Source: Candidatus Hodarchaeota archaeon
GTDB lineage: Archaea; Asgardarchaeota; Lokiarchaeia; Sigyniarchaeales; SOKP01
Assembly (NCBI GenBank): GCA_048886685.1
Contig: JBHLKM010000010.1
Coordinates: forward strand, 130,298-154,297
Length of the DNA stretch: 24,000 nt
Direction of reading: 5' to 3'
Part shown: piece by piece, positions 1,801-16,832 of the stretch
Numbering within the stretch: the first letter of the stretch is position 1
Layout of the letters: each line of letters begins with the position of its first letter
The notes under the pieces: model-generated
The model's database searches: none
Told to the model about the DNA's origin: nothing
Seen by the model: only the letters and a program-made list of their open reading frames with translations
Program-made: the position numbers and the translations under genes

Positions 1801-2733
1801 TCATCTATTCGCTCTTCCAGTTTGTTCAACGGTTTCAAGGAAGTCAAGAATTTCAGCTAAAGTACGTTTAGGATCTTCGATTGCAGTCATGTGGCCAAGA
1901 CCAGGCATAACCACATGTCGAACGTCAGGAATCTCTTTTGCCATTATTTCACTTGGCTTAAAAAAGACTACGTCAAATTCACCAAGTAAGACAAGCGTAG
2001 GACACTTGATCTGTCTGAGTTCTTCAATCCTAGGATTAGGATCTGAATAAAAACTTGTCATAAAGTATATTATTGCCCGACGATCTTGTCGCCTTAAAAA
2101 TCCTTCGTAAATTTTCATCATTTTATCGCTTTCCGGATGTTCAGCCATTTTGAACAAAAATGGTCCGGGTTCTTGCTTAATACCAGCCATCCTATCCTCA
2201 ATTGAGATCTTCAAATCCATTTCTATCCATGCTTCTATCATTTTTTCTCTTTGTTCCTCACTTGCTTTCTGACGTAATTCAGCCAATTGTGCTTGTTGTG
2301 CTCTTGCTTTTTTTTCCTCTTCCGTAAATTCTCTGTAATCAGGAATATCAACGAGAGTATTTGAACTTGTATCCGTCAACATAGCACTTAATAAACGATT
2401 TGATCTTTTCATTGCGTAACGAGCACCCACCATCCCTCCAGTAGCATGAGTTAATAAATGGAACTTATCAATGCCTAAGAAGTCAGCAAGGTCATCAAAA
2501 TCTTGAGCCATGGTGTCAGCATCATAACCGTAAGGCTTTTCTTTTACGACCGTACGACCATGTGCCCTCATATCAATTGAAATCACCCTATATTTTTTAG
2601 CTAATGCAGCAGTAACCCCTGTCTCGCTCCAATAAGTTCCATCTTCCATTAGACCATGATTCGCGATGATAGGATCTCCTTTTCCAACATCTTCATAATA
2701 CATTCGTAAACTTCCTTTTTCAAAATATGGCAT
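1801..2733 (-). CDS. alpha/beta-fold hydrolase family protein with an atypical nucleophile elbow
   Basis: 310-aa ORF. It has an HG oxyanion motif (ANHGL), an elbow LLTHATGGM in place of GHSxGG, LVLLGEFD (acid residue) and GLGHMTAIEDP (catalytic His). A charged helical lid insert (EEEKKARAQQAQLAELRQKASEEQREK) is present. It sits 56 bp downstream of the SDR on the same strand. Confidence 0.8.
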   Translation of the reverse strand: MPYFEKGSLRMYYEDVGKGDPIIANHGLMEDGTYWSETGVTAALAKKYRVISIDMRAHGRTVVKEKPYGYDADTMAQDFDDLADFLGIDKFHLLTHATGGMVGARYAMKRSNRLLSAMLTDTSSNTLVDIPDYREFTEEEKKARAQQAQLAELRQKASEEQREKMIEAWIEMDLKISIEDRMAGIKQEPGPFLFKMAEHPESDKMMKIYEGFLRRQDRRAIIYFMTSFYSDPNPRIEELRQIKCPTLVLLGEFDVVFFKPSEIMAKEIPDVRHVVMPGLGHMTAIEDPKRTLAEILDFLETVEQTGRANR

Positions 2734-2910
2734 AATTAAATCATTAAATTTATTTCTATATGATTAAATTATAAAGTAAGTATTCCAGTTTTATAGATTT
2801 CTATTGCTTTAAAGTCAAAAGATTAAAAAACTAGAGATCTGGATATGAAAAAATTAACAAATTAAGGAAATATGAATTTTGCTTAAAAAAGAAAAAAATA
2901 GATTTAGAAA

Positions 2911-3573
2911 TTATACTCTTAGCACTTTATCAGTTAATATTTCAACTTTTATGTTAGGATCTTTTTTATTCAGAAGTTCTTTAAATTTATTTAAATCCTT
3001 GTCCCAATTATGCATCGGTACTGCTATTTCAGGTTGAATATCTACTGCAGAATCGGTGGCTTCATCGAAATCCATGGTGTATGTACCTCCACATGGAATT
3101 AATGCAACTGTTATGTTTTTATCAGCTAATTCTTTCATTTCAGGAATTCTTTCGGTATCACCTGCATGGTAAACACTTTTACCCCCTGACCTTATGATTG
3201 TGCCTGCCCATCCACTTGATTTTGGATGATTTGGCTTTTTTATATTATAGGAGGGTATAAGCTGAATTGAAAGATCTTTATAATCAAAAGTATCACCTAA
3301 TTTAATTGCTTGACCATTAAATTCCTTTAGATTACTTGCTATGCTTTCTGGACCAAGTAAAATAGTATCATCCTTCATCAATTTTTTTATTGAATCACCA
3401 TGAAAATGATCAAAATGACTATGACTACTGACAATTATATCTGCTTTTTCTTCCCCTTTTTTTAACTGATAAGGATCTAAATAAATCACCATTCCACTAC
3501 CTGTTTTCACTCTAAATGCTGCGTGTCCTAACCATTCAATTTGAAATTGAAAATCTTCTCCCATTTGATTCAC
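2911..3573 (-). CDS. metallo-beta-lactamase-fold metal-dependent hydrolase (UPF0173-like)
   Basis: 220-aa ORF with SSHSHFDH (HxHxDH motif), YHAGDT and VPMH metal ligands. The size and layout are typical of small archaeal MBL-fold hydrolases. Confidence 0.8.
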   Translation of the reverse strand: MNQMGEDFQFQIEWLGHAAFRVKTGSGMVIYLDPYQLKKGEEKADIIVSSHSHFDHFHGDSIKKLMKDDTILLGPESIASNLKEFNGQAIKLGDTFDYKDLSIQLIPSYNIKKPNHPKSSGWAGTIIRSGGKSVYHAGDTERIPEMKELADKNITVALIPCGGTYTMDFDEATDSAVDIQPEIAVPMHNWDKDLNKFKELLNKKDPNIKVEILTDKVLRV

Positions 3574-3689
3574 CTCTTAAATAATTTGAAGACTAGATTA
3601 TAATTTATTATTATGATTTAATCCTTTAAATTAATAACGTAAAAAGGATAAAATGAGATGAAACCTATTATGATCTTATTGAACACATT

Positions 3690-4076
3690 CTAGTCTTCTT
3701 CTTCGAATTGCCATTCGGCGCTTTCGAGAGGTATTTTTTTGGAAATTCCGAAATTATCTTCTTTAGATATATCTAACTCTTGAAATTTGTCTTTTAATAT
3801 TTTATTTTCAAAATTTGGGATTTCATTTATGAGAAAGGCTTTTGATATTGGACTTACAGGTGGAGAGAGAGTATTTGATTTTTTAGCTATGATTTCTTTA
3901 GTTATTTTTTGATTTAATCGTTCATTTTTGTTAAAAAAGGGATTTCCAATCATAATATTAGGCTTTTTCATTCTACTAAGAGTATTTTTTGGAAAAGTAG
4001 ATTTTGCAGTTCGACACATTGGACAATTTATTTCATCTAAACCATGTATGCAAGGCATTTTTTCTGTATCTCTCAT
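3690..4076 (-). CDS. hypothetical protein with an N-terminal CxxxxxxxxCxxC knuckle and an acidic Trp-containing tail
   Basis: 128-aa ORF that does not overlap any other call. The N-terminus reads MPCIHGLDEINCPMC and the C-terminus ends ESAEWQFEEED. I recognise no family. Confidence 0.5.
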   Translation of the reverse strand: MRDTEKMPCIHGLDEINCPMCRTAKSTFPKNTLSRMKKPNIMIGNPFFNKNERLNQKITKEIIAKKSNTLSPPVSPISKAFLINEIPNFENKILKDKFQELDISKEDNFGISKKIPLESAEWQFEEED

Positions 4077-6212: not shown

Positions 6213-7355
6213 ATGACAAAAGGAATAATAATCTCTGGTGGTTGGGGAACCCGTTTACGCCCATTAACGTGTACCATTCCTAAATCTCTAATTCCAGTAG
6301 TTAATAAACCAGTTATAGAGCGTCAAATACTTTTATTAAAAGCTGCTGGGGTGACTGATATTTTCTTAGCTGTAAGTGTAATGGCTGATATTTTACAAAA
6401 CTACTTCGAGGATGGTCAAAAATTTGGAGTAAACATTCAATACACAGATGAGAGAGTACCAATGGGAACCGCGGGTGCTATTAAGTTAGCTGAGGATTAT
6501 TTAAAAGGTGAAAATTTTTTTATGTTAAATGGAGATGTCATATTGAATTTTAATATGAGCCAGATGATTAATTTGCATGAAAAGAATAAAGGAATTGGAG
6601 TTATTGCTAGTAAAGTGGTAGAAGATCCATCGAGGTACGGGGTTTTAATAGTAGATAATGATACGGGTAAAATTAATAAATTCCTTGAAAAAGATGAGTA
6701 TCAACCTCCAGAAGGAAAGTATGTTCCGATGCCTATCAATGCTGGAGTTTATTTACTAGAACCTGATGTCTTCGAGTATATCGAACCTACTAAAAAGGTA
6801 TCTATTGAGAGAGAGATTTTCCCTAAACTCGCAAAAGAAGGTAATTTGTATTTTTATCCAATATCTGGCATTTGGAAGGATATTGGAAAACCAGAAGAAT
6901 TATTAGATGCGAATATACTACTGATGAAAGATATCTTACAGAATTCAAATGATCAACAGAAGAACATTATAGATGGCAGCCTTGATATTGACGGAAAAGC
7001 TCTAATCTATCCTCCTGTAGTTATAGGAAAAAATGTAACAATACGAAAAAATTGTGAAATAGGGCCAAACGTTATAGTGGGCGATAATGTCTATATTGGA
7101 GTTAATACAAAAATTAAAGAATCATTAATTTACAACAAAGCCTATATATCTAGGCAGGTAACAATTGAAAAGGCGATTGTATCTGATAATTGTGTAATCA
7201 ATGATAAGGTTAACCTAAAAGGTAATAACCAAAATTTAGTGATATTAGCTTCTTATACTGAAGTTTTAGAAAAAGTTAACTTAATTGCACCTTCAAATGG
7301 TTCTATTACAGTTTGTCATCATGAAACCGTAAAAGATGATATTCGATTAAATTAG
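6213..7355 (+). CDS. sugar-1-phosphate nucleotidyltransferase (NDP-sugar pyrophosphorylase) with a C-terminal left-handed beta-helix domain
   Basis: The GGWGTRLRPLT signature (GGxGTRLxPLT) lies near the N-terminus. EKP-type and GxWxDxG (SGIWKDIGKP) motifs are present. C-terminal hexapeptide repeats read IGKNVTIRKNCEIGPNVIVGDNVYIGVNTKI. The track starts at a TTG (6192). The in-frame ATG at 6213 (MTKGIIISGG) is the more likely start. Confidence 0.85.
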   Translation: MTKGIIISGGWGTRLRPLTCTIPKSLIPVVNKPVIERQILLLKAAGVTDIFLAVSVMADILQNYFEDGQKFGVNIQYTDERVPMGTAGAIKLAEDYLKGENFFMLNGDVILNFNMSQMINLHEKNKGIGVIASKVVEDPSRYGVLIVDNDTGKINKFLEKDEYQPPEGKYVPMPINAGVYLLEPDVFEYIEPTKKVSIEREIFPKLAKEGNLYFYPISGIWKDIGKPEELLDANILLMKDILQNSNDQQKNIIDGSLDIDGKALIYPPVVIGKNVTIRKNCEIGPNVIVGDNVYIGVNTKIKESLIYNKAYISRQVTIEKAIVSDNCVINDKVNLKGNNQNLVILASYTEVLEKVNLIAPSNGSITVCHHETVKDDIRLN

Positions 7356-8725
7356 ATTTCTTCGCGAAGTCTCATTATTTTTTTCTTAAGCTTTTTTATT
7401 CTGGAATCTGAGACATTGAAAATTAAGAAACTTTCTAAGATCTTTAGGGCCTTTTGATAAAAATTAATACTATTCAGATAATCTCCATTCTTTTCAGCAT
7501 TTTCTCCAGCTTCTAAAGCAAAATCTAATTCTAACTGCTTCTCTTTTTTTTCGAGATCTAATACTGATTGCGAAATTCTATTAATATCTTCTTTAATATT
7601 GAATTCTCTTGCTATATAAAGAGCCTTTTTATATTCTTTTTCTGCGACCTGATATGCTAAAGTTTTTTCAGCATTTTTAGCTTTCTTTACAAATTCTTTT
7701 ATCATCTTACTTGCCGATAAAATATCCATTTCATCTAAGTTGAGTTCGATAGCATCAATTCCAGTATTACTTGAAAGAATGGATGATATTGGTTTAAATT
7801 TAGCTACTTTTTCAGAAATAGTCTCCTCGAGCATTTCAATATTACTAGCAACGGTTTCAAGATTTGTAGAAATAAAAATATTGTTTTTTACTAGCTGATA
7901 AATCTCATAAAGAATAATATTTGCATCCAAATTTACAATTTTTTTTACTCGATTAAGCAGATTATTTATGAAGAAAAATTGTTTAGAAGCAAGAAGTTCT
8001 TTAGCTAAGGTTAGTATGGCTTTTTGGATTTGATTTTGATTTATTTTCTCTAAATCGTTTGGTGCAATACTATGTGCTAAAGACATAGGAAATACTAATT
8101 TAACATTAAAAGAATCTACCAAATATTCAATCATGTTTTCAACATTAAAAATCCCAGAATCTTTAAAATTACTGATTTCATTTTGAAAAATATCCTCGTA
8201 TTCTAACAAAAATTGTCTTACATCAGTCCGCAGGTTATCTGAAGCTGTATGGTCGAGTATTAGGCAAATCCTTATAAATTCTCCATTTTTGAGTAAGATA
8301 TTAAAATTCTGATATTGAAATTCATAGAATTGATCATTTCTGAGATAACTTGAACCATTAGATGAAACTGTGTCTGATTCAGAGAAGGTTATATTTGCTT
8401 GAATAAAACCACTTAATAAATCTGCATCAATTTCCGCACCTGAAACAGAATAGTTTAATAATTTCAAGCCTGATTCTTTATCCATTAATATAATGTGCCG
8501 AATATTCAAAACATCCAAAAATTTCCGCCAAATAATTTCCCGCTCCACTTGAAGATGCCTTTCATATGAATCCAATTCAAAAACTTCCAAGCTTGAATCA
8601 ACTTCAAATCCTAACTCCTTTAGTTTCTTTTTAAGACATGACATACAATATTTAGGATATTTTGCACACTTAGATTTACTAACTCCGCAATTAAATCCTA
8701 ATTGATTAATTTCAAAATAAACCAT
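7352..8725 (-). CDS. hypothetical protein: N-terminal Cys cluster, longin/roadblock-like segment, C-terminal MIT/TPR-like helical repeats
   Basis: 457-aa ORF. It has a Cys cluster (NCGVSKSKCAKYPKYCMSC). A beta-beta-alpha-beta-beta-alpha pattern reads IRHIILMDKESGLKLLNYSV...DADLLSGFIQANITFSES...FYEFQYQNFNILLKNGEFIRICLILDH...LRTDVRQFLLEYEDIF. The C-terminal helices read EKEYKKALYIAREF and AEKNGDYLNSINFYQKALKILE. The domain assignments are inference only. Confidence 0.6.
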   Translation of the reverse strand: MVYFEINQLGFNCGVSKSKCAKYPKYCMSCLKKKLKELGFEVDSSLEVFELDSYERHLQVEREIIWRKFLDVLNIRHIILMDKESGLKLLNYSVSGAEIDADLLSGFIQANITFSESDTVSSNGSSYLRNDQFYEFQYQNFNILLKNGEFIRICLILDHTASDNLRTDVRQFLLEYEDIFQNEISNFKDSGIFNVENMIEYLVDSFNVKLVFPMSLAHSIAPNDLEKINQNQIQKAILTLAKELLASKQFFFINNLLNRVKKIVNLDANIILYEIYQLVKNNIFISTNLETVASNIEMLEETISEKVAKFKPISSILSSNTGIDAIELNLDEMDILSASKMIKEFVKKAKNAEKTLAYQVAEKEYKKALYIAREFNIKEDINRISQSVLDLEKKEKQLELDFALEAGENAEKNGDYLNSINFYQKALKILESFLIFNVSDSRIKKLKKKIMRLREEI

Positions 8726-8901: not shown

Positions 8902-9180
8902 ATGGAAGACCTTAAGGAAAAAGGGCTTAAAATATATAATGCTATTTTTGAAGGAAAAAAAACTGTTGAGATTGAAGAAATCGAATATCCAATAAAGAAA
9001 TTTTCAAGCGGTATAAAATATGTTGACCTATTCGGATATCGTTATATAGAGCAAAATCGCAATAAAAAGTCAGAATGGGGCAAAAAAGCAAGAGAAGGAC
9101 ATAAGATCATGTGGATTATCAAAGGTAGAAGGTATATTGCCCAAATTATAGATGGAGATTATAACGATCTAAAGAAGTAA
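8902..9180 (+). CDS. hypothetical small protein
   Basis: 92-aa ORF preceded by an SD-like GTGAGGAT a few nt upstream of the ATG. I recognise no family. Confidence 0.45.
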   Translation: MEDLKEKGLKIYNAIFEGKKTVEIEEIEYPIKKFSSGIKYVDLFGYRYIEQNRNKKSEWGKKAREGHKIMWIIKGRRYIAQIIDGDYNDLKK

Positions 9181-11192: not shown

Positions 11193-11774
11193 TTATTGTT
11201 TTTTTCTGAGATAATATCCCTTATCACTTAAATTCATAGCGATAATTTCTTTTTGCATGAGTTTCTGTACGTTTTGATTTTTAACTCGTGATTGGGCTAT
11301 AGCTATAATTTCATTAAGTATATTAAAAATCAATAGAAAATCCCTTTCTTTTAAATTGATTGGAATCTCAACGATCATACTTTTTAAAATATTATTACCA
11401 TAAAGAATTGATTTTTCTCCTTTTTCATTGACTCGAATTGTTTGAAATTCAGAAAATAGATTGAGTTTATTTAGAAATTCAGCGCCTTCTAAACTTAAAT
11501 AGAAAATTCCTTTTTTAATAAAGCCAAAGTATAGTCCAGCTGAACAGATTCTAGGTTTGTTGTCGAAATCTTTGATTAATTTGTGTTGTTCATTAGAAAT
11601 TAAATAGATTGATGGAAAGTTATCATCAATGGATAATTCATATGTAGAAATAAATAGATCCTTTTCAAGATTGTCAATTAAGGTTAAAATTTTTGGGGAA
11701 ATATTAGAAAGTGTAGTAAAAATTATTTTTTTCTCTATTTCATTTATCTCTCTAAAAGTTATTGAATCATTCAT
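11193..11774 (-). CDS. nip7: NIP7 homologue (UPF0113 pre-PUA + PUA domain; 60S biogenesis factor-like RNA-binding protein)
   Basis: 193-aa ORF that aligns by eye along its length with human NIP7. SLGTCFGKFTK..FRLHVTALDYL aligns with [45 protein letters not shown] aligns with [36 protein letters not shown] aligns with [16 protein letters not shown]. Confidence 0.8.
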   Translation of the reverse strand: [193 protein letters not shown]

Positions 11775-11854: not shown

Positions 11855-12568
11855 ATGGGTATTCGAAAGATAGAAGATGAGATTGATTTAAAAGAAGCGA
11901 TGAAGAAAAAGGCAGCAGAATTAAAGATGAAAGATATGGAAGCAAGAGCATCTGTCGAAAAATTTACTAAAGATCGGTTACGTGAACTTGCTAAAAGACA
12001 TGGCGTTTTATTAGCTCTAACTCCTGAATTAAGAAATGAAGTTAAGGAATTACAGAAAAAATACAATATCCCTTCATCTAAAATCATAACTGAACAAATA
12101 ACAGAACATGATGTTTTAAAAAAATTTTCTAAAATAGATCATGAAAAATTAGGAATGCTTGCATACCAACGGGTTTTAATGGCAAAAGAAGAAACAGGGG
12201 GGATAATCCCATTGTCAGAAGTATTCGAATTGATTAATACCGGAATATTAAAAGGTAATGTTGAGGTTAAGGATATTGATAAAGCTTTAAGTCTCCTGAA
12301 AAAAAAGAAGGTAATTGAAGATATTACACAATTAGAATCTGGAGCTATTATAGTAAGATTCTTTCCTATTCAATATACAGGGGATGAGTCTAAGGTTGTT
12401 GAATTAGCAAAAGAAAAAGGTATTCTCACTTTAGAAGATGTGTGTGTTAAACTAGATTGGTCTCAAGATCGTGCTCTTCATGCATTAGAATCACTTGAAA
12501 AGAGTGGAATCGCAAAGTATAGAGAAAATATTTTAACTGGGAAACAATGGTTTTTCCCATCAATATAA
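11855..12568 (+). CDS. vps22: ESCRT-II subunit, Vps22/Vps36-like (EAP30 domain, tandem winged helix)
   Basis: 237-aa ORF that aligns by eye with human VPS22/EAP30. It has a basic N-terminal helix. NGGLITLEEL aligns with TGGIIPLSEVF. DDLIRAIKKLKALG aligns with KDIDKALSLLKKKK. VVLQLAEKNGYVTVSEIKASLKWETERARQVLEHLLKEGLAW...YWLPALF aligns with KVVELAKEKGILTLEDVCVKLDWSQDRALHALESLEKSGIAK...QWFFPSI. Confidence 0.85.
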   Translation: MGIRKIEDEIDLKEAMKKKAAELKMKDMEARASVEKFTKDRLRELAKRHGVLLALTPELRNEVKELQKKYNIPSSKIITEQITEHDVLKKFSKIDHEKLGMLAYQRVLMAKEETGGIIPLSEVFELINTGILKGNVEVKDIDKALSLLKKKKVIEDITQLESGAIIVRFFPIQYTGDESKVVELAKEKGILTLEDVCVKLDWSQDRALHALESLEKSGIAKYRENILTGKQWFFPSI

Positions 12569-12581
12569 AGAGAAAATTTAG

Positions 12582-13484
12582 TTATTCCAATTTTATTTTA
12601 AATGCTAATTGTCCGTTCTCTAATTTGAGGACTTTAGCTCTACGATTTTTCGCTAAGATTTTAAAAATCTCTTCCAAATCTTCTAAAGGAAGATTACTAA
12701 AATCTTCTTGTTTTGCTTCCCGGAGTTCATATATCATAATAGGTTCAAGCTTTCCATTATCATAAGCCCATTTATATATCTCATCTGACCAGACTTCAAG
12801 TGTTTTCCAATAAATTCTTAGTTTTTCTTTCTTTTTGGATAGCCATACCGCTTGTTTTTGACTAATTAATTGCTCTGCAATTTCTAATATATATTTTTCT
12901 CTTTTAGTAAAATTCGAAAAAGGTTTTTGAGAATTTAATTCTCTTATATAAATTATATGGAGAACAGCAAAACGAGCATAATCAAAAAGAACTTTTGCCC
13001 ATTCTGTTTTCCAAGAAATATAATCATTTTTCTGATTATCTTTATTAGGCATAGTATACATGAATTTTTTACGCTCTTCTTCTAACCAAGGATAAGCTTT
13101 TAACAATTTTTCATAAGCAGTTAATTTCTTTTCAATAAGCCCTTTTTCTCCTATGATTTCTTCTTCTAATTCTTGAAGTTCAGCTTCAATTTGGTCAGCA
13201 TGTCGTTGGTATACTTTATTATCAATTTCTCCTGCTTTCGAGCTTAAAATATTCTCAAGTTTATCAAATTCCTTTTCGATATAGCTTAAATCTGCAATTT
13301 TAAAATCTGATTCGTTAATTATTTGTCTTTCTAATGCTTCCTTCTCTAGTTCTTCTTTTTCTTTTTTTAATGTCCTTAAACGGGCTAGTTCTTTCCTTAA
13401 TTCTTCTAATTCTTTTTCTGCTTTTTCTTTTTCTTCTTTAGGGACTTCCGCTGTTTTCTCTCGTTGTCTTTCCATGTTATTCAA
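12582..13484 (-). CDS. vps25: ESCRT-II subunit Vps25-like, with a ~125-aa N-terminal charged coiled-coil extension
   Basis: 300-aa ORF. Residues ~130-300 align by eye with human VPS25. PWQYRFPPFFTLQPN..TR.KQL..W aligns with YPWLEEERKKFMYTMPNKDNQKNDYISWKTEW. FLIMWRRPEEWGKLIYQWVSRSG...FTLYEL aligns with LRIYWKTLEVWSDEIYKWAYDNGKLEPIMIYEL. The C-terminal EEFHGLDEATLLRALQALQ...GVKF aligns with EDFSNLPLEDLEEIFKILAK...LAFKI. Its start lies 9 bp after the vps4 stop on the same strand. Confidence 0.85.
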   Translation of the reverse strand: MNNMERQREKTAEVPKEEKEKAEKELEELRKELARLRTLKKEKEELEKEALERQIINESDFKIADLSYIEKEFDKLENILSSKAGEIDNKVYQRHADQIEAELQELEEEIIGEKGLIEKKLTAYEKLLKAYPWLEEERKKFMYTMPNKDNQKNDYISWKTEWAKVLFDYARFAVLHIIYIRELNSQKPFSNFTKREKYILEIAEQLISQKQAVWLSKKKEKLRIYWKTLEVWSDEIYKWAYDNGKLEPIMIYELREAKQEDFSNLPLEDLEEIFKILAKNRRAKVLKLENGQLAFKIKLE

Positions 13485-13493
13485 TCTCGTTTC

Positions 13494-14714
13494 TTATACT
13501 TCTCCAAATTCTTCTGCCCAATCATTATATTGTTTTATAAGAGTTTTATTAGTCATCGGTTTTACTTTTTTTAAAGTCTTCTTAAAATCTTTTAAATTTA
13601 TATCTCTAACTTTTACCTCTTTATCTGAACTTTCCAAAAGGCCACCCATATCCAATTCTCGAATTGGTAACATGATAACCTCACGACAAACATTCGCAAT
13701 ATCTCTACCAGAATATCCTTCAGTTCTAACAGCTAATTCAATATAATCTTCATCTGTTAATGCTGAGTTTACACCCTCAGTATGGATTTTAAAGATTCCT
13801 GATCTCGCTTTCATATCTGGAAGAGGAACATGAACTCTTTTCTCAAATCTACTCAGCATTGCATTGTCAATATCCCATGGACGATTTGTCGCTCCCAACA
13901 CCAACAAAGGTTTATCATGAGTAGATTTTAATCCTTGTATTTCACTCAATAACTGTGTTTTGACTCTCCTTTCACCACCGCTTTCAGTTCCTTCTCCCCG
14001 CTTTGTAGCTACAGAATCGATTTCATCCATAAATATTAGACTTGGTGCTCTCAATCTCGCAACTTTGAATAGAGAACTAATTAATTTCTCACTTTCACCT
14101 AACCATTTACTTAATAGATCAGCTGAAGAAGCGCTAAAAAAGGTTGCATTACATTCTGTGGCTGCCGCTTTAGCTAATAAAGTCTTACCACATCCTGGTG
14201 GACCAAAAAGTAAAATTCCTGACCAAGGTCTCCTAGCACCCGTAAATAATTCAGGTTTAGCTATTGGAAGAACTATTGCTTCTCTCAGAGCTTGTTTAAC
14301 GTTTTGTAGCCCCGCAATATCCTCCCATTTTACATTAGGTGATTCGGTAACTATTGTACCAGAGATCATATCAATCAATTCTTGCTCTTCCGAAGAAACC
14401 GCTCCAGCTTCGGAATCCGTCAGACTAGAATCTCCAGTAATACTTGGTGCTTCAGAAGGTCTTGTTCTCCTAGGACTCACTCCACTGAGATGAGATTTTA
14501 GTATTTTAGCTCTCTCGACGTATTCTTCAATGTTCTTTTGGCACAACATTCTCATTTGCGGATTCTTATTATATTTCATAAATTGCATTAAGATCTCTGC
14601 TGCACGTTGGTATTTATTTATAGCCTGCCTTTTTTTTCCTTGATTGTCCAATGCTACTGCTTCTTTTGCCGTTTTCACAGCATATTGATAAAGTTTTGAA
14701 TCTACAGATGACAT
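13494..14714 (-). CDS. vps4: Vps4-type AAA+ ATPase (N-terminal MIT domain, single AAA+ cassette, Vps4 C-terminal helix)
   Basis: 406-aa ORF. MIT-like helices read AVKTAKEAVALDNQGKKRQAINKYQRAAEILMQF and YVERAKILKSHL. The motifs are Walker A GPPGCGKT, Walker B LIFMDEIDS and SRH ATNRPWDIDNAMLSRFEKR. The C-terminal LIKQYNDWAEEFG is typical of Vps4. Confidence 0.95.
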   Translation of the reverse strand: MSSVDSKLYQYAVKTAKEAVALDNQGKKRQAINKYQRAAEILMQFMKYNKNPQMRMLCQKNIEEYVERAKILKSHLSGVSPRRTRPSEAPSITGDSSLTDSEAGAVSSEEQELIDMISGTIVTESPNVKWEDIAGLQNVKQALREAIVLPIAKPELFTGARRPWSGILLFGPPGCGKTLLAKAAATECNATFFSASSADLLSKWLGESEKLISSLFKVARLRAPSLIFMDEIDSVATKRGEGTESGGERRVKTQLLSEIQGLKSTHDKPLLVLGATNRPWDIDNAMLSRFEKRVHVPLPDMKARSGIFKIHTEGVNSALTDEDYIELAVRTEGYSGRDIANVCREVIMLPIRELDMGGLLESSDKEVKVRDINLKDFKKTLKKVKPMTNKTLIKQYNDWAEEFGEV

Positions 14715-14896
14715 ATTAAATATATTACAAAATTCTTAGTATTTATAGCTAATGTAATTTAGCAATCTGTATGATTAATAATTGAATCAGAATATATCAA
14801 ATTTACTCTTTAAGCAAAAGATAATAAATATTGGTCTACAAATAATTATATAATACCGAATTTTTTTATATCATATATAATATATAAGAAATTTTG
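14715..14896. promoter_or_regulatory. divergent promoter region between vps4 and the ESCRT-III gene
   Basis: A 180-bp, very AT-rich spacer lies between divergently transcribed genes. TATA-like TTTTTATA at 14863-14870 sits ~27 bp before the first in-frame start codons, which suggests a leaderless or near-leaderless ESCRT-III mRNA. Several other TATA-like strings are present, so the exact elements are uncertain. Confidence 0.3.
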
Positions 14897-15532
14897 ATGA
14901 TTATGGGTTTTCTAAAAGATATCTCTAAATGGTTAAGCGGTGGTAAGAGGGAAAAAGACACTGTTCGCTCTGCAGCAGTAAAATTGAAAGTATTTAATAA
15001 AAGACTGATGCGACAAACTAAAAAATTAGAGATGAGCGCAAAATTAGCAAGAGATAAAGCAGTAAATCTACGGAGACAAGGTGATATGGATGGATCTAAA
15101 TTTCATGCGCGTAATTATCTTCAGGTTAAGAAGCAATCAAGAGTGGTGGAAATGTTTCGCACCAATCTGGAAGGTTTATTGTTCAAATTGGAGCAAGCAA
15201 CTGCAGTTAAAGATGTATCCGAAATTATGACTGGAATTGCTCAATCTCTTGCCACTTTAAAAAGTCAACTTTCCGTTCCTCAGATGACAGAATTAATGAG
15301 CCAAATCGATATTGATATGGAAGAATTTGCTGTAACTGCTGATATTGCTACAGAAGGTATGGATAATATCTCAATTGATACTGCTGTTACCGATTCAGAT
15401 GTTAACGAAGTTTTAGGAGAAATAGATGCAGAGATTCAAGTGGAAATGGGTGCGGCATTACCAAGTGCAGCATCTGACGAAAAGATAGCCGAGTTAGAGA
15501 AAGAGTTAAACCGTTTGAAATCTGATGAATAA
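14897..15532 (+). CDS. ESCRT-III subunit (Snf7 family), Vps2/24/46 (CHMP1-3)-like, with a C-terminal MIM1-like helix
   Basis: About 210-aa ORF with a basic N-terminal helical hairpin and an acidic C-terminal half, the typical ESCRT-III charge asymmetry. By-eye similarity to Vps2: LPQLQRISMEFEKQ aligns with VPQMTELMSQIDID, and DEIVNKVLDEIGVDL aligns with SDVNEVLGEIDAEIQ. The C-terminal AELEKELNRLK fits the MIM1 pattern LxxRLxxLK. The track starts at TTG 14894; in-frame ATGs at 14897 and 14903 are more plausible starts. Confidence 0.9.
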   Translation: MIMGFLKDISKWLSGGKREKDTVRSAAVKLKVFNKRLMRQTKKLEMSAKLARDKAVNLRRQGDMDGSKFHARNYLQVKKQSRVVEMFRTNLEGLLFKLEQATAVKDVSEIMTGIAQSLATLKSQLSVPQMTELMSQIDIDMEEFAVTADIATEGMDNISIDTAVTDSDVNEVLGEIDAEIQVEMGAALPSAASDEKIAELEKELNRLKSDE

Positions 15533-15648
15533 AGTTAGTTTTTTTCTCTAATCTTCTTAATACACCACCTACCAAAATTATTAAAAGATTTCTTTCTATT
15601 TTAACAATATTCGATAACTCAAAATTTAATAATATATAAGTGATCTTT

Positions 15649-16662
15649 ATGGATTTTCCAGAATTAATTACGATTGGAAGTAATACTTTAGATATATTAA
15701 TTCAGATTGATGACATATTACGATTTGAATTGTTTGATAAAGATATCATAAAAAAATATACTGCGATCGAATATTCTCGTAAATTGAATGTGAAGAATGT
15801 AAGATTTGTACCAGGAGGGTCAGGTGCCAATATCGCAGCAAATTGTTCCATGTTAGGACTAAAATGTGCATTTGTTGGTGTAATGGGTAATGATTTTTCT
15901 GCAGAAATTTGTTTGACTGATCTAAAGAAACGCGGGGTTGATTTATCTCAAGTTATTCAGACGGATAAGGATTGTACAGCATTATCAATAATATTAAGAA
16001 CGCAATGGGGTAAAGATCGTAGCATCTTAGCCTATAAAGGAGCAAATAATTTGCTAAAGCCTTCTGATGTTAAGGAAGAGTTATTTAATAATATCAAAGC
16101 ATTCGCCTGGACATCCTTGACCACAGATGAGAGCTGTAAAGCAATAGAAAAAGCAATAACACTGACAAAAAATAAAGGGGGAATGGTTTTCGCTGCTCCC
16201 AGTATGTCAATTATAAAGAACGCACCAGAGTGGGCAAAAATTCTAATTTCTAATTCTGATGTAGTATCTATGAATCTAGAAGAAGCTCAAGAATTTACAG
16301 GAGAAGCTAAAAAGTCATTAATGATAAAGAATTTCTTAGACCTAGGAATAAAACTGATTTCTATAACAGATGGACCTAATGGCTCAATCATATCGGATGG
16401 CAAGACTATGATAAATAGTGGTGTTTATAGTGTTGGAAAAGTTGAGGATACAACAGGGGCAGGTGATGCATTCTTAGCTGGAATATTAATCTCTCGTTTA
16501 AACAATTTTACCCTTGAAAAAACATCAAAAATGGCAACAGCAATGAGTTTCTTGGAATGTAAAGAAGTAGGAGTTCGCGAGGGATTACCAAATAGTCTAC
16601 AAGAATTAGAAGATTTCATAAATAATAATACAATTAAACAGGTTATCTCTGAAATCGTTTGA
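15649..16662 (+). CDS. PfkB-family carbohydrate/nucleoside kinase (ribokinase-like fold)
   Basis: It has an N-terminal GGSGANIA motif and a C-terminal DTTGAGDAFLAG anion-hole/catalytic-base motif. The track starts at GTG 15640; the ATG at 15649 (MDFPELITIGS) is the likely start. The substrate cannot be called from sequence. Confidence 0.85.
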   Translation: MDFPELITIGSNTLDILIQIDDILRFELFDKDIIKKYTAIEYSRKLNVKNVRFVPGGSGANIAANCSMLGLKCAFVGVMGNDFSAEICLTDLKKRGVDLSQVIQTDKDCTALSIILRTQWGKDRSILAYKGANNLLKPSDVKEELFNNIKAFAWTSLTTDESCKAIEKAITLTKNKGGMVFAAPSMSIIKNAPEWAKILISNSDVVSMNLEEAQEFTGEAKKSLMIKNFLDLGIKLISITDGPNGSIISDGKTMINSGVYSVGKVEDTTGAGDAFLAGILISRLNNFTLEKTSKMATAMSFLECKEVGVREGLPNSLQELEDFINNNTIKQVISEIV

Positions 16663-16729: not shown

Positions 16730-16832
16730 GCGCTCTTAGTATAGTGGTAAGTATGCTAGGTTGCCAAATCTCTGTCTGTTTGAAGCCAGAGAGGTGATCC
16801 TAGCGACCCGGGTTCAATTCCCGGAGGGCGCA
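16730..16832 (+). tRNA. tRNA-Gly(GCC): tRNA-Gly (anticodon GCC) with a ~31-nt intron at or next to the canonical 37/38 position
   Basis: Hand-folded cloverleaf:
- Acceptor stem GCGCTCT/AGGGCGC, with one G-U pair.
- D arm GTAT-AGTGGTAA-GTAT, closed by two Watson-Crick and two G-U pairs.
- Anticodon stem CTAGG (16756-16760) / CCTAG (16799-16803).
- Loop TTGCCA, giving anticodon GCC.
- T arm CCGGG-TTCAATT-CCCGG.
- Discriminator A; no encoded CCA.
About 31 nt (approx 16767-16797) interrupt the anticodon loop. They contain their own helix, TCTCTG/CAGAGA. A T-run follows at 16834-16839. Confidence 0.85.

Follow-up and report, generated by a model that had tools for sequence, protein, structure and literature searches.

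In the present study, we analysed a 24,000-nucleotide stretch of contig JBHLKM010000010.1 (assembly GCA_048886685.1, positions 130,298 to 154,297 of the forward strand), which is called the window throughout, and in it the four neighbouring genes at positions 11855-15532. [quoted passage not shown] The cluster is a genuine system, and its type, its gene content, the extension of its Vps25 and its split organisation are all in the literature already; as an orthologue of the cluster catalogued between 2022 and 2024, it brings no new component or principle. Asgard ESCRT loci bear on the time of origin of the eukaryotic membrane-remodelling and ubiquitin-sorting machinery, and the present one belongs to a four-gene core that is stable across a whole Lokiarchaeial clade in its fixed orientation and with its housekeeping flanks. 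The genes and their spacer are as follows.

11855..12568, plus strand: vps22-like gene (ESCRT-II, EAP30/Vps22-36 family), 237 residues, Pfam EAP30.
12582..13475, minus strand: vps25-like gene (ESCRT-II), 297 residues, Pfam ESCRT-II; the mechanical open reading frame (ORF) reaches TTG 13484.
13494..14714, minus strand: vps4 (MIT-AAA+ ATPase), 406 residues, Pfam MIT/AAA/AAA_lid_3/Vps4_C; vps25 lies immediately downstream and co-directed.
14715..14902, no strand: vps4/ESCRT-IIIA divergent intergenic spacer, with blocks B and A and TATA-like elements.
14903..15532, plus strand: A-type ESCRT-III gene (Vps2/24/46- or CHMP1/2/3-like; ESCRT-IIIA), 209 residues, Pfam Snf7; the mechanical ORF starts from TTG 14894.

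An earlier note on this DNA, made from the letters alone, had recognised all four genes as ESCRT homologues, and every ORF scored above the Pfam gathering threshold of the family proposed for it, including the EAP30 and Vps25 ORFs, for which a profile check had been advised. Four neighbouring genes of one pathway at such E-values are not a matter of chance. The convergent gap between vps22 and vps25 is exactly the 13 bp described. The start of vps25 is most likely ATG 13475 (MERQR..., 297 residues) and that of the ESCRT-III gene ATG 14903 (MGFLKD..., 209 residues), every orthologue and the NCBI gene call agreeing in both cases. With these starts vps4 and vps25 remain co-oriented and ESCRT-III and vps4 remain divergent, and the distances given for them, 9 bp and 180 bp, become 18 bp and 188 bp. 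It is probable that vps4 and vps25 are read as a single transcript.

The Vps22-like protein matched Pfam EAP30 (PF04157) with 52.8 bits against a gathering threshold of 26.8 (E 5.5e-14), its residues 1-219 covering profile positions 1-214 of 219. The nearest solved relatives were human SNF8/Vps22 (E 1e-8) and yeast Vps22 (5e-8), with human Vps36 far weaker (7e-3). It has the plain 237-residue form without an additional domain, and its sequence is identical to NCBI MFX0081920.1, which is annotated there as 'hypothetical protein'. Self-interaction of Vps22, as a homodimer, has been reported from yeast two-hybrid and biochemical work for the Loki and Heimdall homologues (Hatano 2022, PMC9192718).

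For the Vps25-like protein, Pfam ESCRT-II/Vps25 (PF05871) was matched with 46.3 bits against a gathering threshold of 27 (E 6.5e-12) over residues 159-260 of the 12582-13484 ORF. Sequence matches in the PDB were 9uyv_A, an 'ESCRT-II complex subunit' (1e-45), Odinarchaeota Vps25 7pb9 (3e-21), human VPS25 (1e-7) and yeast Vps25 (1.6e-5). In an AlphaFold2 (AF2) model built from 35 sequences, the C-terminal part (approximately residues 120-297) is a tandem winged helix with a predicted local distance difference test score (pLDDT) above 90, and the best Foldseek match of the model was again 7pb9 (E 2.3e-12, template modelling score (TM) 0.83), followed by human 3cuq_C and yeast 1xb4/1w7p. The Asgard motif 'PW..(x)FMY..P' lines up in sequence alignment with eukaryotic 'FPWQY.FPPFFT.QP', the proline/aromatic contact to Vps22/Vps36 in eukaryotes, and the extended forms all keep W130 and P143. 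The protein carries an N-terminal extension of about 118 residues, charged and 55% E/K/R/D/Q, for which the AF2 model shows a pair of long helices (13-55 and 62-110) with a lower pLDDT of 42-82. A search of 1.8 billion representatives returned 205 clusters of Vps25 relatives, many with N-terminal extensions of differing length; the full-length extended architecture could still be aligned at about 35% identity, and the same search brought up short forms of the eukaryote type with the ending 'GVKFF'. Extra N-terminal subdomains on Asgard Vps25 were already noted by Makarova (2024, PMC10936438), so the extension is not new. As a separate observation, residues 1-8 (window position 13475 downward) form a short basic motif, M-E-R-Q-R / R-E-R-E-R / (I/V)-R-E-K-x-R, which was found in most extended Asgard Vps25 proteins, even where the remaining extension is unalignable.

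The claimed restriction of ESCRT-II to eukaryotes and Asgard archaea stands for the sequence families and needs a caveat for distant ESCRT-II-like winged-helix proteins, which have been described in non-Asgard archaea (Makarova 2024).

All domains expected of Vps4 were found above gathering: MIT with 50.4 bits (residues 10-74), AAA with 137.6 (167-298), AAA_lid_3 with 42.7 and Vps4_C with 28.8 (365-404). The Walker A (GPPGCGKT, 171-178) and Walker B (LIFMDEID, 226-233) motifs are intact, as are pore loop 1 (KWLGE, 203-207) and the second region of homology (TNRPWDIDNAMLSRF, 276-290). Most of the protein can be aligned to yeast Vps4 (333 bits, query 13-357) and human VPS4B (320 bits, query 5-355).

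The ESCRT-III protein matched Pfam Snf7 (PF03357) with 47.3 bits against a gathering threshold of 27.3 over residues 29-196. A profile built from 11 orthologues was compared with the PDB, and its A-type matches were CHMP1B (47.6 bits, 1.8e-11), CHMP2A (47.1, 2.6e-11), Vps24 (31.6, 1.4e-6), CHMP1A (30.0, 4e-6) and CHMP3 (23.6), against only 12.6-16.3 bits for Snf7 (E 0.07-0.9). In the classification of Souza (2025, PMC11804906), the A-type comprises CHMP1/2/3/IST1 and the B-type CHMP4-7, and B recruits A. Judged by its sequence, the protein is closer to the A-type than to the B-type, which upholds the Vps2/24/46-like assignment made earlier, and the assignment is reciprocally supported by the B-type paralogue of the same metagenome-assembled genome (MAG), P0406, described below, to which the protein is 28% identical. 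It is the only Snf7-family gene of the window, as had been stated. Orthologues have kept the N-terminus MGFLKDISKWL and the C-terminal helix KIAELEKELNRLKSDE nearly unchanged (23 orthologues for the C-terminus). The C-terminus, I-A-E-L-E-K-E-L-N-R-L-K, contains a putative MIT-interacting motif 1 (MIM1)-like L-x3-L-x2-L-K, which agrees with the consensus used here, (D/E)xxLxxRLxxL(K/R), at four of six positions (L4, L8, L11, K12).

The earlier note had called the layout of the genes unusual. To place it, we used 34 Vps25-relative loci (referred to by L numbers) from the GTDB species-representative collection, in which ORFs were called and matched to the window proteins. The loci were found with one peptide pattern taken from 13 close Vps25 sequences, so the reach of the search is Lokiarchaeia-type Vps25; the loci of Lokiarchaeum GC14_75, Prometheoarchaeum and Heimdall/Odin were not returned by it. 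The order PfkB <- ESCRT-IIIA / vps4 -> vps25 -> <- vps22 / NIP7 -> <- RsmB / CYTH was found in about 25 species-level loci, down to 46% Vps25 identity, and 15 more metagenome contigs carry the conserved ESCRT order. The vps4->vps25 adjacency holds in 29/29 loci that have both genes, and vps22 converges on vps25 in every locus that carries vps22. In the most distant loci, L038 and L039, the trio vps4 -> vps25 -> <- vps22 is kept and ESCRT-III is not adjacent, SecY lying upstream in L039. The layout is thus the conserved norm in this lineage, and the word unusual has to be withdrawn, as the arrangement has also been published: the tightest linkage of ESCRT-III and Vps4 is with Vps25 (Hatano 2022), and vps25 is co-directed with vps4 while vps22 is transcribed separately (Makarova 2024). 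The genes that flank the cluster in the window are those named earlier.

11193-11774, minus strand: NIP7/UPF0113 flank, Pfam.
15640-16662, plus strand: PfkB flank, Pfam.

Several variants of the layout were observed among the relatives. In Loki_b32 (L013 5052-8470), three genes stand between ESCRT-IIIA and vps4, whose products are an unknown protein of 342 residues, a radical-SAM/DUF5131 protein and one with leucine-rich repeats, and metagenome contig L053 has the same insertion form. Between PfkB and ESCRT-IIIA, L012 (7118-7690, minus strand) and L013 (3084-3644, minus strand) have a gene for a small GTPase of the Ras family (160 bits with Pfam Ras). The corresponding gap of the window is 107 bp and holds no such gene, and metagenome loci L048, L055 and L059 have gaps of 1-1.5 kb at this place, which suggests that the GTPase insertion beside ESCRT-IIIA is common. 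L035 (5974-8062) has a tandem pair of A-type ESCRT-III genes, 49% and 47% identical to that of the window and split by a 139-residue ORF without a Pfam match. Furthermore, L038 (WJJB01000209.1), labelled 'Candidatus Bathyarchaeota archaeon', carries vps4 -> vps25 -> <- vps22 with a Vps25 46% identical to ours; either this is an Asgard contig that was wrongly binned or labelled, or ESCRT-II occurs outside Asgard archaea.

The divergent spacer between vps4 and ESCRT-IIIA contains a pair of strongly conserved non-coding blocks. Block B is TTAAAGAGTAAATTTGATATAT (window 14792-14813), and in the alignment of 18 orthologous spacers its consensus is TTAAAGAG.AAATTTGA.ATAT, with 20/22 columns reaching at least 90% identity; in the same alignment, block A (window 14830-14845) reads TTtTtTG.AGaCCAAT. 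Control spacers of the same genomes have conserved runs of only 6-10 nt. The exact 22-mer of block B was found in 12 distinct genome loci, and in Loki_b32 block B is present on either side of the three-gene insertion. Its exact matches in JGI metagenomes lie upstream of ESCRT-IIIA in 16/17 cases, the remaining one having arisen by chance within the Mur-ligase gene of a bacterium. For block B, the region upstream of the B-type ESCRT-III gene and all other parts of about 600 kb gave only chance-level matches with two mismatches. At 14740-14751, some 25 nt upstream of the start codon of vps4, there is a TATA-like TAGCTATAAATA, and a TATA-rich stretch at approximately 14862-14890 lies upstream of ESCRT-III. 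The position of the blocks between the two putative core promoters suggests the site of a shared regulator, which they probably are, and ESCRT-IIIA is probably co-regulated with vps4-vps25 through this spacer. The literature searched describes no cis-regulatory element for Asgard ESCRT genes and no Roadblock-MIT adaptor of the kind considered below. In cultured Lokiarchaeia, the conserved promoter blocks could be used as bait for an Asgard ESCRT regulator.

The second ESCRT-III paralogue was found at another locus.

L040 58-705 (plus strand) and 1848-3869 (minus strand), relative L042 10001-13810: second ESCRT locus, B-type ESCRT-III and 673-residue protein.

Residues 12-183 of an Asgard B-type ESCRT-III, taken from the PDB alignment of 9fn1_U, were used as the query, and the B-type family proved abundant in the clade of the window. 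P0406 (215 residues, Vps20/32/60-like B-type ESCRT-III; accessions MFX0080802/0164613/1291567) shares its three accession blocks and its SRA samples with the window proteins and therefore belongs to the same MAG. In the PDB it matched only Asgard B-type structures and Snf7, with no CHMP1/2/3. Its surroundings were seen on Logan contigs of 3-4 kb for the MAG and more widely in a close relative, and in both it is a solitary gene among housekeeping genes. Two genes away, a 673-residue protein is encoded that starts with three zinc ribbons of the CxxC...CxxC kind; a globular region follows in the centre, then a Q/N-rich linker and, at the C-terminus, a coiled coil on which a sub-threshold Vps23_core (steadiness-box) match lies. 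The protein is also weakly similar to the N-terminal part of yeast Vps28. Its architecture agrees with that of the Znr_PH_CC_SB family, which has been proposed as an Asgard ESCRT-I component (Makarova 2024), and the protein is a putative ESCRT-I-like component.

From these components, a mechanism can be outlined on the basis of yeast two-hybrid and biochemical work (Hatano 2022), reconstitution (Souza 2025) and eukaryotic ESCRT biochemistry. By analogy with the homologues, a Vps22 dimer with Vps25 arms would form an ESCRT-II-like adaptor on the membrane. Vps25, whose interaction with ESCRT-IIIB has been reported (Hatano 2022), would recruit the B-type ESCRT-III encoded elsewhere, and the B-type polymer would in turn recruit the A-type subunit of the window. 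The composite A/B polymer would deform and constrict the membrane, and the MIT domain of Vps4 would dock on the C-terminal helix of ESCRT-III, so that the polymer could be threaded through the hexamer pore and disassembled, leading to remodelling or scission. The cellular process served could be vesicle budding, the remodelling of protrusions, division or membrane repair.

Some points weigh against this reading of the locus. The interactions, transcripts and membrane activity attributed to these proteins are carried over from homologues, and an ESCRT-I/ubiquitin input to the system is assumed. The Vps23_core (steadiness-box) match of the 673-residue protein, 18.8-21.8 bits, is below its gathering threshold of 26.8. 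The MIM1 match is imperfect, with E at the R7 position and no acidic residue at position 1, and the TATA assignments, made in DNA of 75-80% A+T, are weak by themselves. In addition, the Vps4 beta-domain region, compared by eye with the yeast sequence, is presumably much shorter than that of yeast, and Vta1-type regulation may be absent.

The main functional rival is a Cdv-like cytokinesis machine equivalent to TACK CdvABC, in which ESCRT-III and Vps4 would cut the division bridge and ESCRT-II would replace CdvA as the membrane adaptor. The two systems share an ESCRT-III-family polymer and an MIT-AAA+ ATPase of the Vps4 family; ESCRT-III and Vps4 act in division in Sulfolobales and in abscission in eukaryotes, and the tightly conserved shared promoter blocks would suit cell-cycle-timed expression. 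Vps4 matches the NCBIfam CdvC equivalog model over its full length with 288 bits and ESCRT-III matches the CdvB model weakly with 24 bits, but these scores are far under the cutoffs of 650 and 370. Moreover, the window has no CdvA match, its ESCRT-III (209 residues, with a MIM-like end) is without the C-terminal winged helix of CdvB, and ESCRT-II together with the steadiness-box-like protein elsewhere in the genome points to a eukaryote-type cargo/adaptor pathway. Lokiarchaeia also encode FtsZ. We consider a Cdv-like division machine unlikely on this balance, even with the statement of Souza (2025) that the cellular role of Asgard ESCRT is undetermined counted in its favour.

A second rival is a reduced ESCRT, which would have lost ESCRT-I and the ubiquitin coupling, with ESCRT-II, ESCRT-III and Vps4 running alone. 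As the earlier note had it, no ESCRT-I or ubiquitin-system Pfam family was found in the window (all ORFs of at least 80 residues), and none was present in the adjoining contig sequence, which extends over about 9 kb on its left and about 6 kb on its right, so that Vps28, UEV, Mod_r and ubiquitin matches are absent from the window and 15 kb of added flanks. The same four were absent within 10 kb of the B-type gene in the close relative, the weak steadiness-box match aside. However, the inspected DNA amounts to about 60 kb of a multi-megabase genome, the ubiquitin and ESCRT genes of Lokiarchaeota stand in two separate regions (Hatano 2022), and the 673-residue zinc-ribbon, coiled-coil and steadiness-box-like protein is a candidate ESCRT-I-like component. 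We consider a true loss improbable. The locus had been proposed to be a reduced or split version of the published Asgard clusters; the finding of P0406 at a second locus bears out the split, and the reduction is not shown.

With regard to lineage, the exact NCBI matches of Vps22 and Vps4 carry the label 'Candidatus Hodarchaeota archaeon'. The proteins are 79-91% identical to those of MAGs, Loki_b32 and a 3.3-Mb contig among them, that are labelled Promethearchaeota/Lokiarchaeota in at least six independent submissions; with Loki_b32, Vps4 and PfkB are 89% and ESCRT-III 90% identical, and the gene order is the same. Within the JBHL* batch, from which the window comes, near-identical syntenic loci (e.g. 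L012, L017, L026) go under the names Hod-, Hermod-, Thor-, Heimdall-, Odin- and Promethearchaeota, so the labels of this batch are uninformative. Among the 34 Vps25 loci, the lineage labels outside the batch are all Promethearchaeota/Promethearchaeia but for one 'Bathyarchaeota' bin, and eight loci are given only as 'uncultured archaeon'. The 'Hodarchaeota' label is most likely wrong and the lineage, as indicated by these identities, Lokiarchaeia close to Loki_b32, which agrees with the Lokiarchaeia-like genome deduced earlier. Hodarchaeia are listed among the lineages without these ESCRT families (Makarova 2024), and a Hodarchaeales (Heimdallarchaeia) genome as labelled, with an unexpected ESCRT-II cluster in a group reported to be ESCRT-less, is highly improbable, having the deposited name of the exact proteins on its side and against it the close Promethearchaeota/Lokiarchaeota relatives, the gene order shared with Loki_b32 and the mixed labels of the batch. 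The misleading label matters because the presence or absence of ESCRT in Hodarchaeales is used in arguments on eukaryogenesis.

Taken as the Lokiarchaeial core locus, the cluster can be compared with the known systems. The ESCRT region is reportedly first described by Spang et al. in 2015, in Lokiarchaeum GC14_75. The Lokiarchaeota region surveyed in 29 Loki genomes has the same four families clustered (EAP30/Vps22-, Vps25-, Vps4- and Vps2/24/46-like), with the second ESCRT-III paralogue and the ubiquitin genes elsewhere and with ESCRT-III and Vps4 tightest with Vps25 (Hatano 2022). It differs in having a free-standing steadiness-box protein nearby, whereas none was found from 9 kb to the left to 6 kb to the right of the window, and in the clade of the window the housekeeping flanks PfkB, NIP7, RsmB and CYTH are fixed. 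Like the Asgard clusters catalogued by Makarova (2024), the window has vps25 co-directed with vps4 and beside the ESCRT-III gene, a separately transcribed vps22, Vps25 N-terminal subdomains and, in the same MAG, a Znr_PH_CC_SB-type putative ESCRT-I protein. In contrast to them, its ESCRT-IIIA is divergent from vps4 where theirs is co-directed, and its vps22 is neither followed by vps23/vps28-like genes nor fused to a steadiness box.

Homologous ESCRT-II, ESCRT-III and Vps4 are shared between the window and the contiguous clusters of ubiquitin and ESCRT genes in Odinarchaeum LCB_4, Helarchaeota and Heimdallarchaeota (Hatano 2022), and the Odin Vps25 7pb9, which is without the long N-terminal extension, is the best fold match of the window Vps25. 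These clusters contain ubiquitin, E1/E2/E3, Vps28, UEV-Vps23 and both ESCRT-III paralogues, whereas the window locus has the A-type only; it is not of this contiguous type, ESCRT-I and ubiquitin/E1/E2 being absent from the window and from -9 to +6 kb around it. With the eukaryotic ESCRT-II/III/Vps4 system, every component is homologous in sequence and fold, and the Vps4 architecture and catalytic motifs are shared; the C-terminal ESCRT-III helix is putatively MIM1-like. The differences are that here one Vps22/36-like gene is present and not two, without a GLUE/PH domain; that Vps25 has the 118-residue charged helical extension and Vps4 what appears to be a shortened beta-domain; and that two ESCRT-III paralogues stand here against eight subfamilies in eukaryotes.

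Two minor leads with some novelty remain, namely the conserved promoter blocks and a Roadblock-containing protein encoded to the left of the cluster.

7352..8725, minus strand: 457-residue protein, possible accessory gene, membership in the module not established; conservation, AF2/Foldseek.

From the N-terminus on, this protein has a zinc ribbon with four cysteines, a Roadblock/MglB-like domain and a helical middle, and it ends in a helical domain that is ambiguously MIT- or TPR-like. Among 38 homologues of 52-92% identity, C13, C20, C27 and C30 are invariant, and the length is constant down to 52%. The AF2 model has a pLDDT of 74, and its best Foldseek matches were MglB, the Rag C-terminal domain, LAMTOR and Prometheoarchaeum Roadblock2/3 (E approximately 4e-4 to 3e-3, TM about 0.6). 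No Pfam family was above threshold, MIT reaching 22.5 bits against a gathering threshold of 30; in the family, MIT was matched by 19/38 homologues and TPR_2 by 5/38, and the C-terminal profile matched TPR designs through one helix motif only. The gene lies 3 kb from the cluster and 6-10 genes from vps25 in several MAGs. Loci L007, L019, L020 and L060 have it near the cluster, and in L012, L013 and L026 a different ORF takes its place; such a variable position means a weak linkage to the ESCRT genes. A literature search returned no paper on the combination of Asgard, Roadblock and MIT domain. One could imagine that the C-terminal domain docks on the MIM-like tail of ESCRT-IIIA, that the Roadblock domain serves as a platform for a Ras/Arf GTPase, and that blocks B and A bind a regulator timing vps4 and ESCRT-IIIA. 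We regard this scheme as speculative and improbable; if true, it would connect the ESCRT core of this Lokiarchaeial clade to signalling by small GTPases and to a transcriptional switch of its own.

Two further observations were made in the window outside the cluster. At 16730-16832 (plus strand), Rfam gave a tRNA match of 54 bits and 103 nt, and ARAGORN finds no tRNA in the window; the length of the match suggests an intron-containing archaeal tRNA. At 8902-9180 (plus strand), a 92-residue ORF without a family is conserved at 78-91% identity across the relatives, and its neighbours are less conserved, CYTH at about 65-70% and NIP7 at about 50%.

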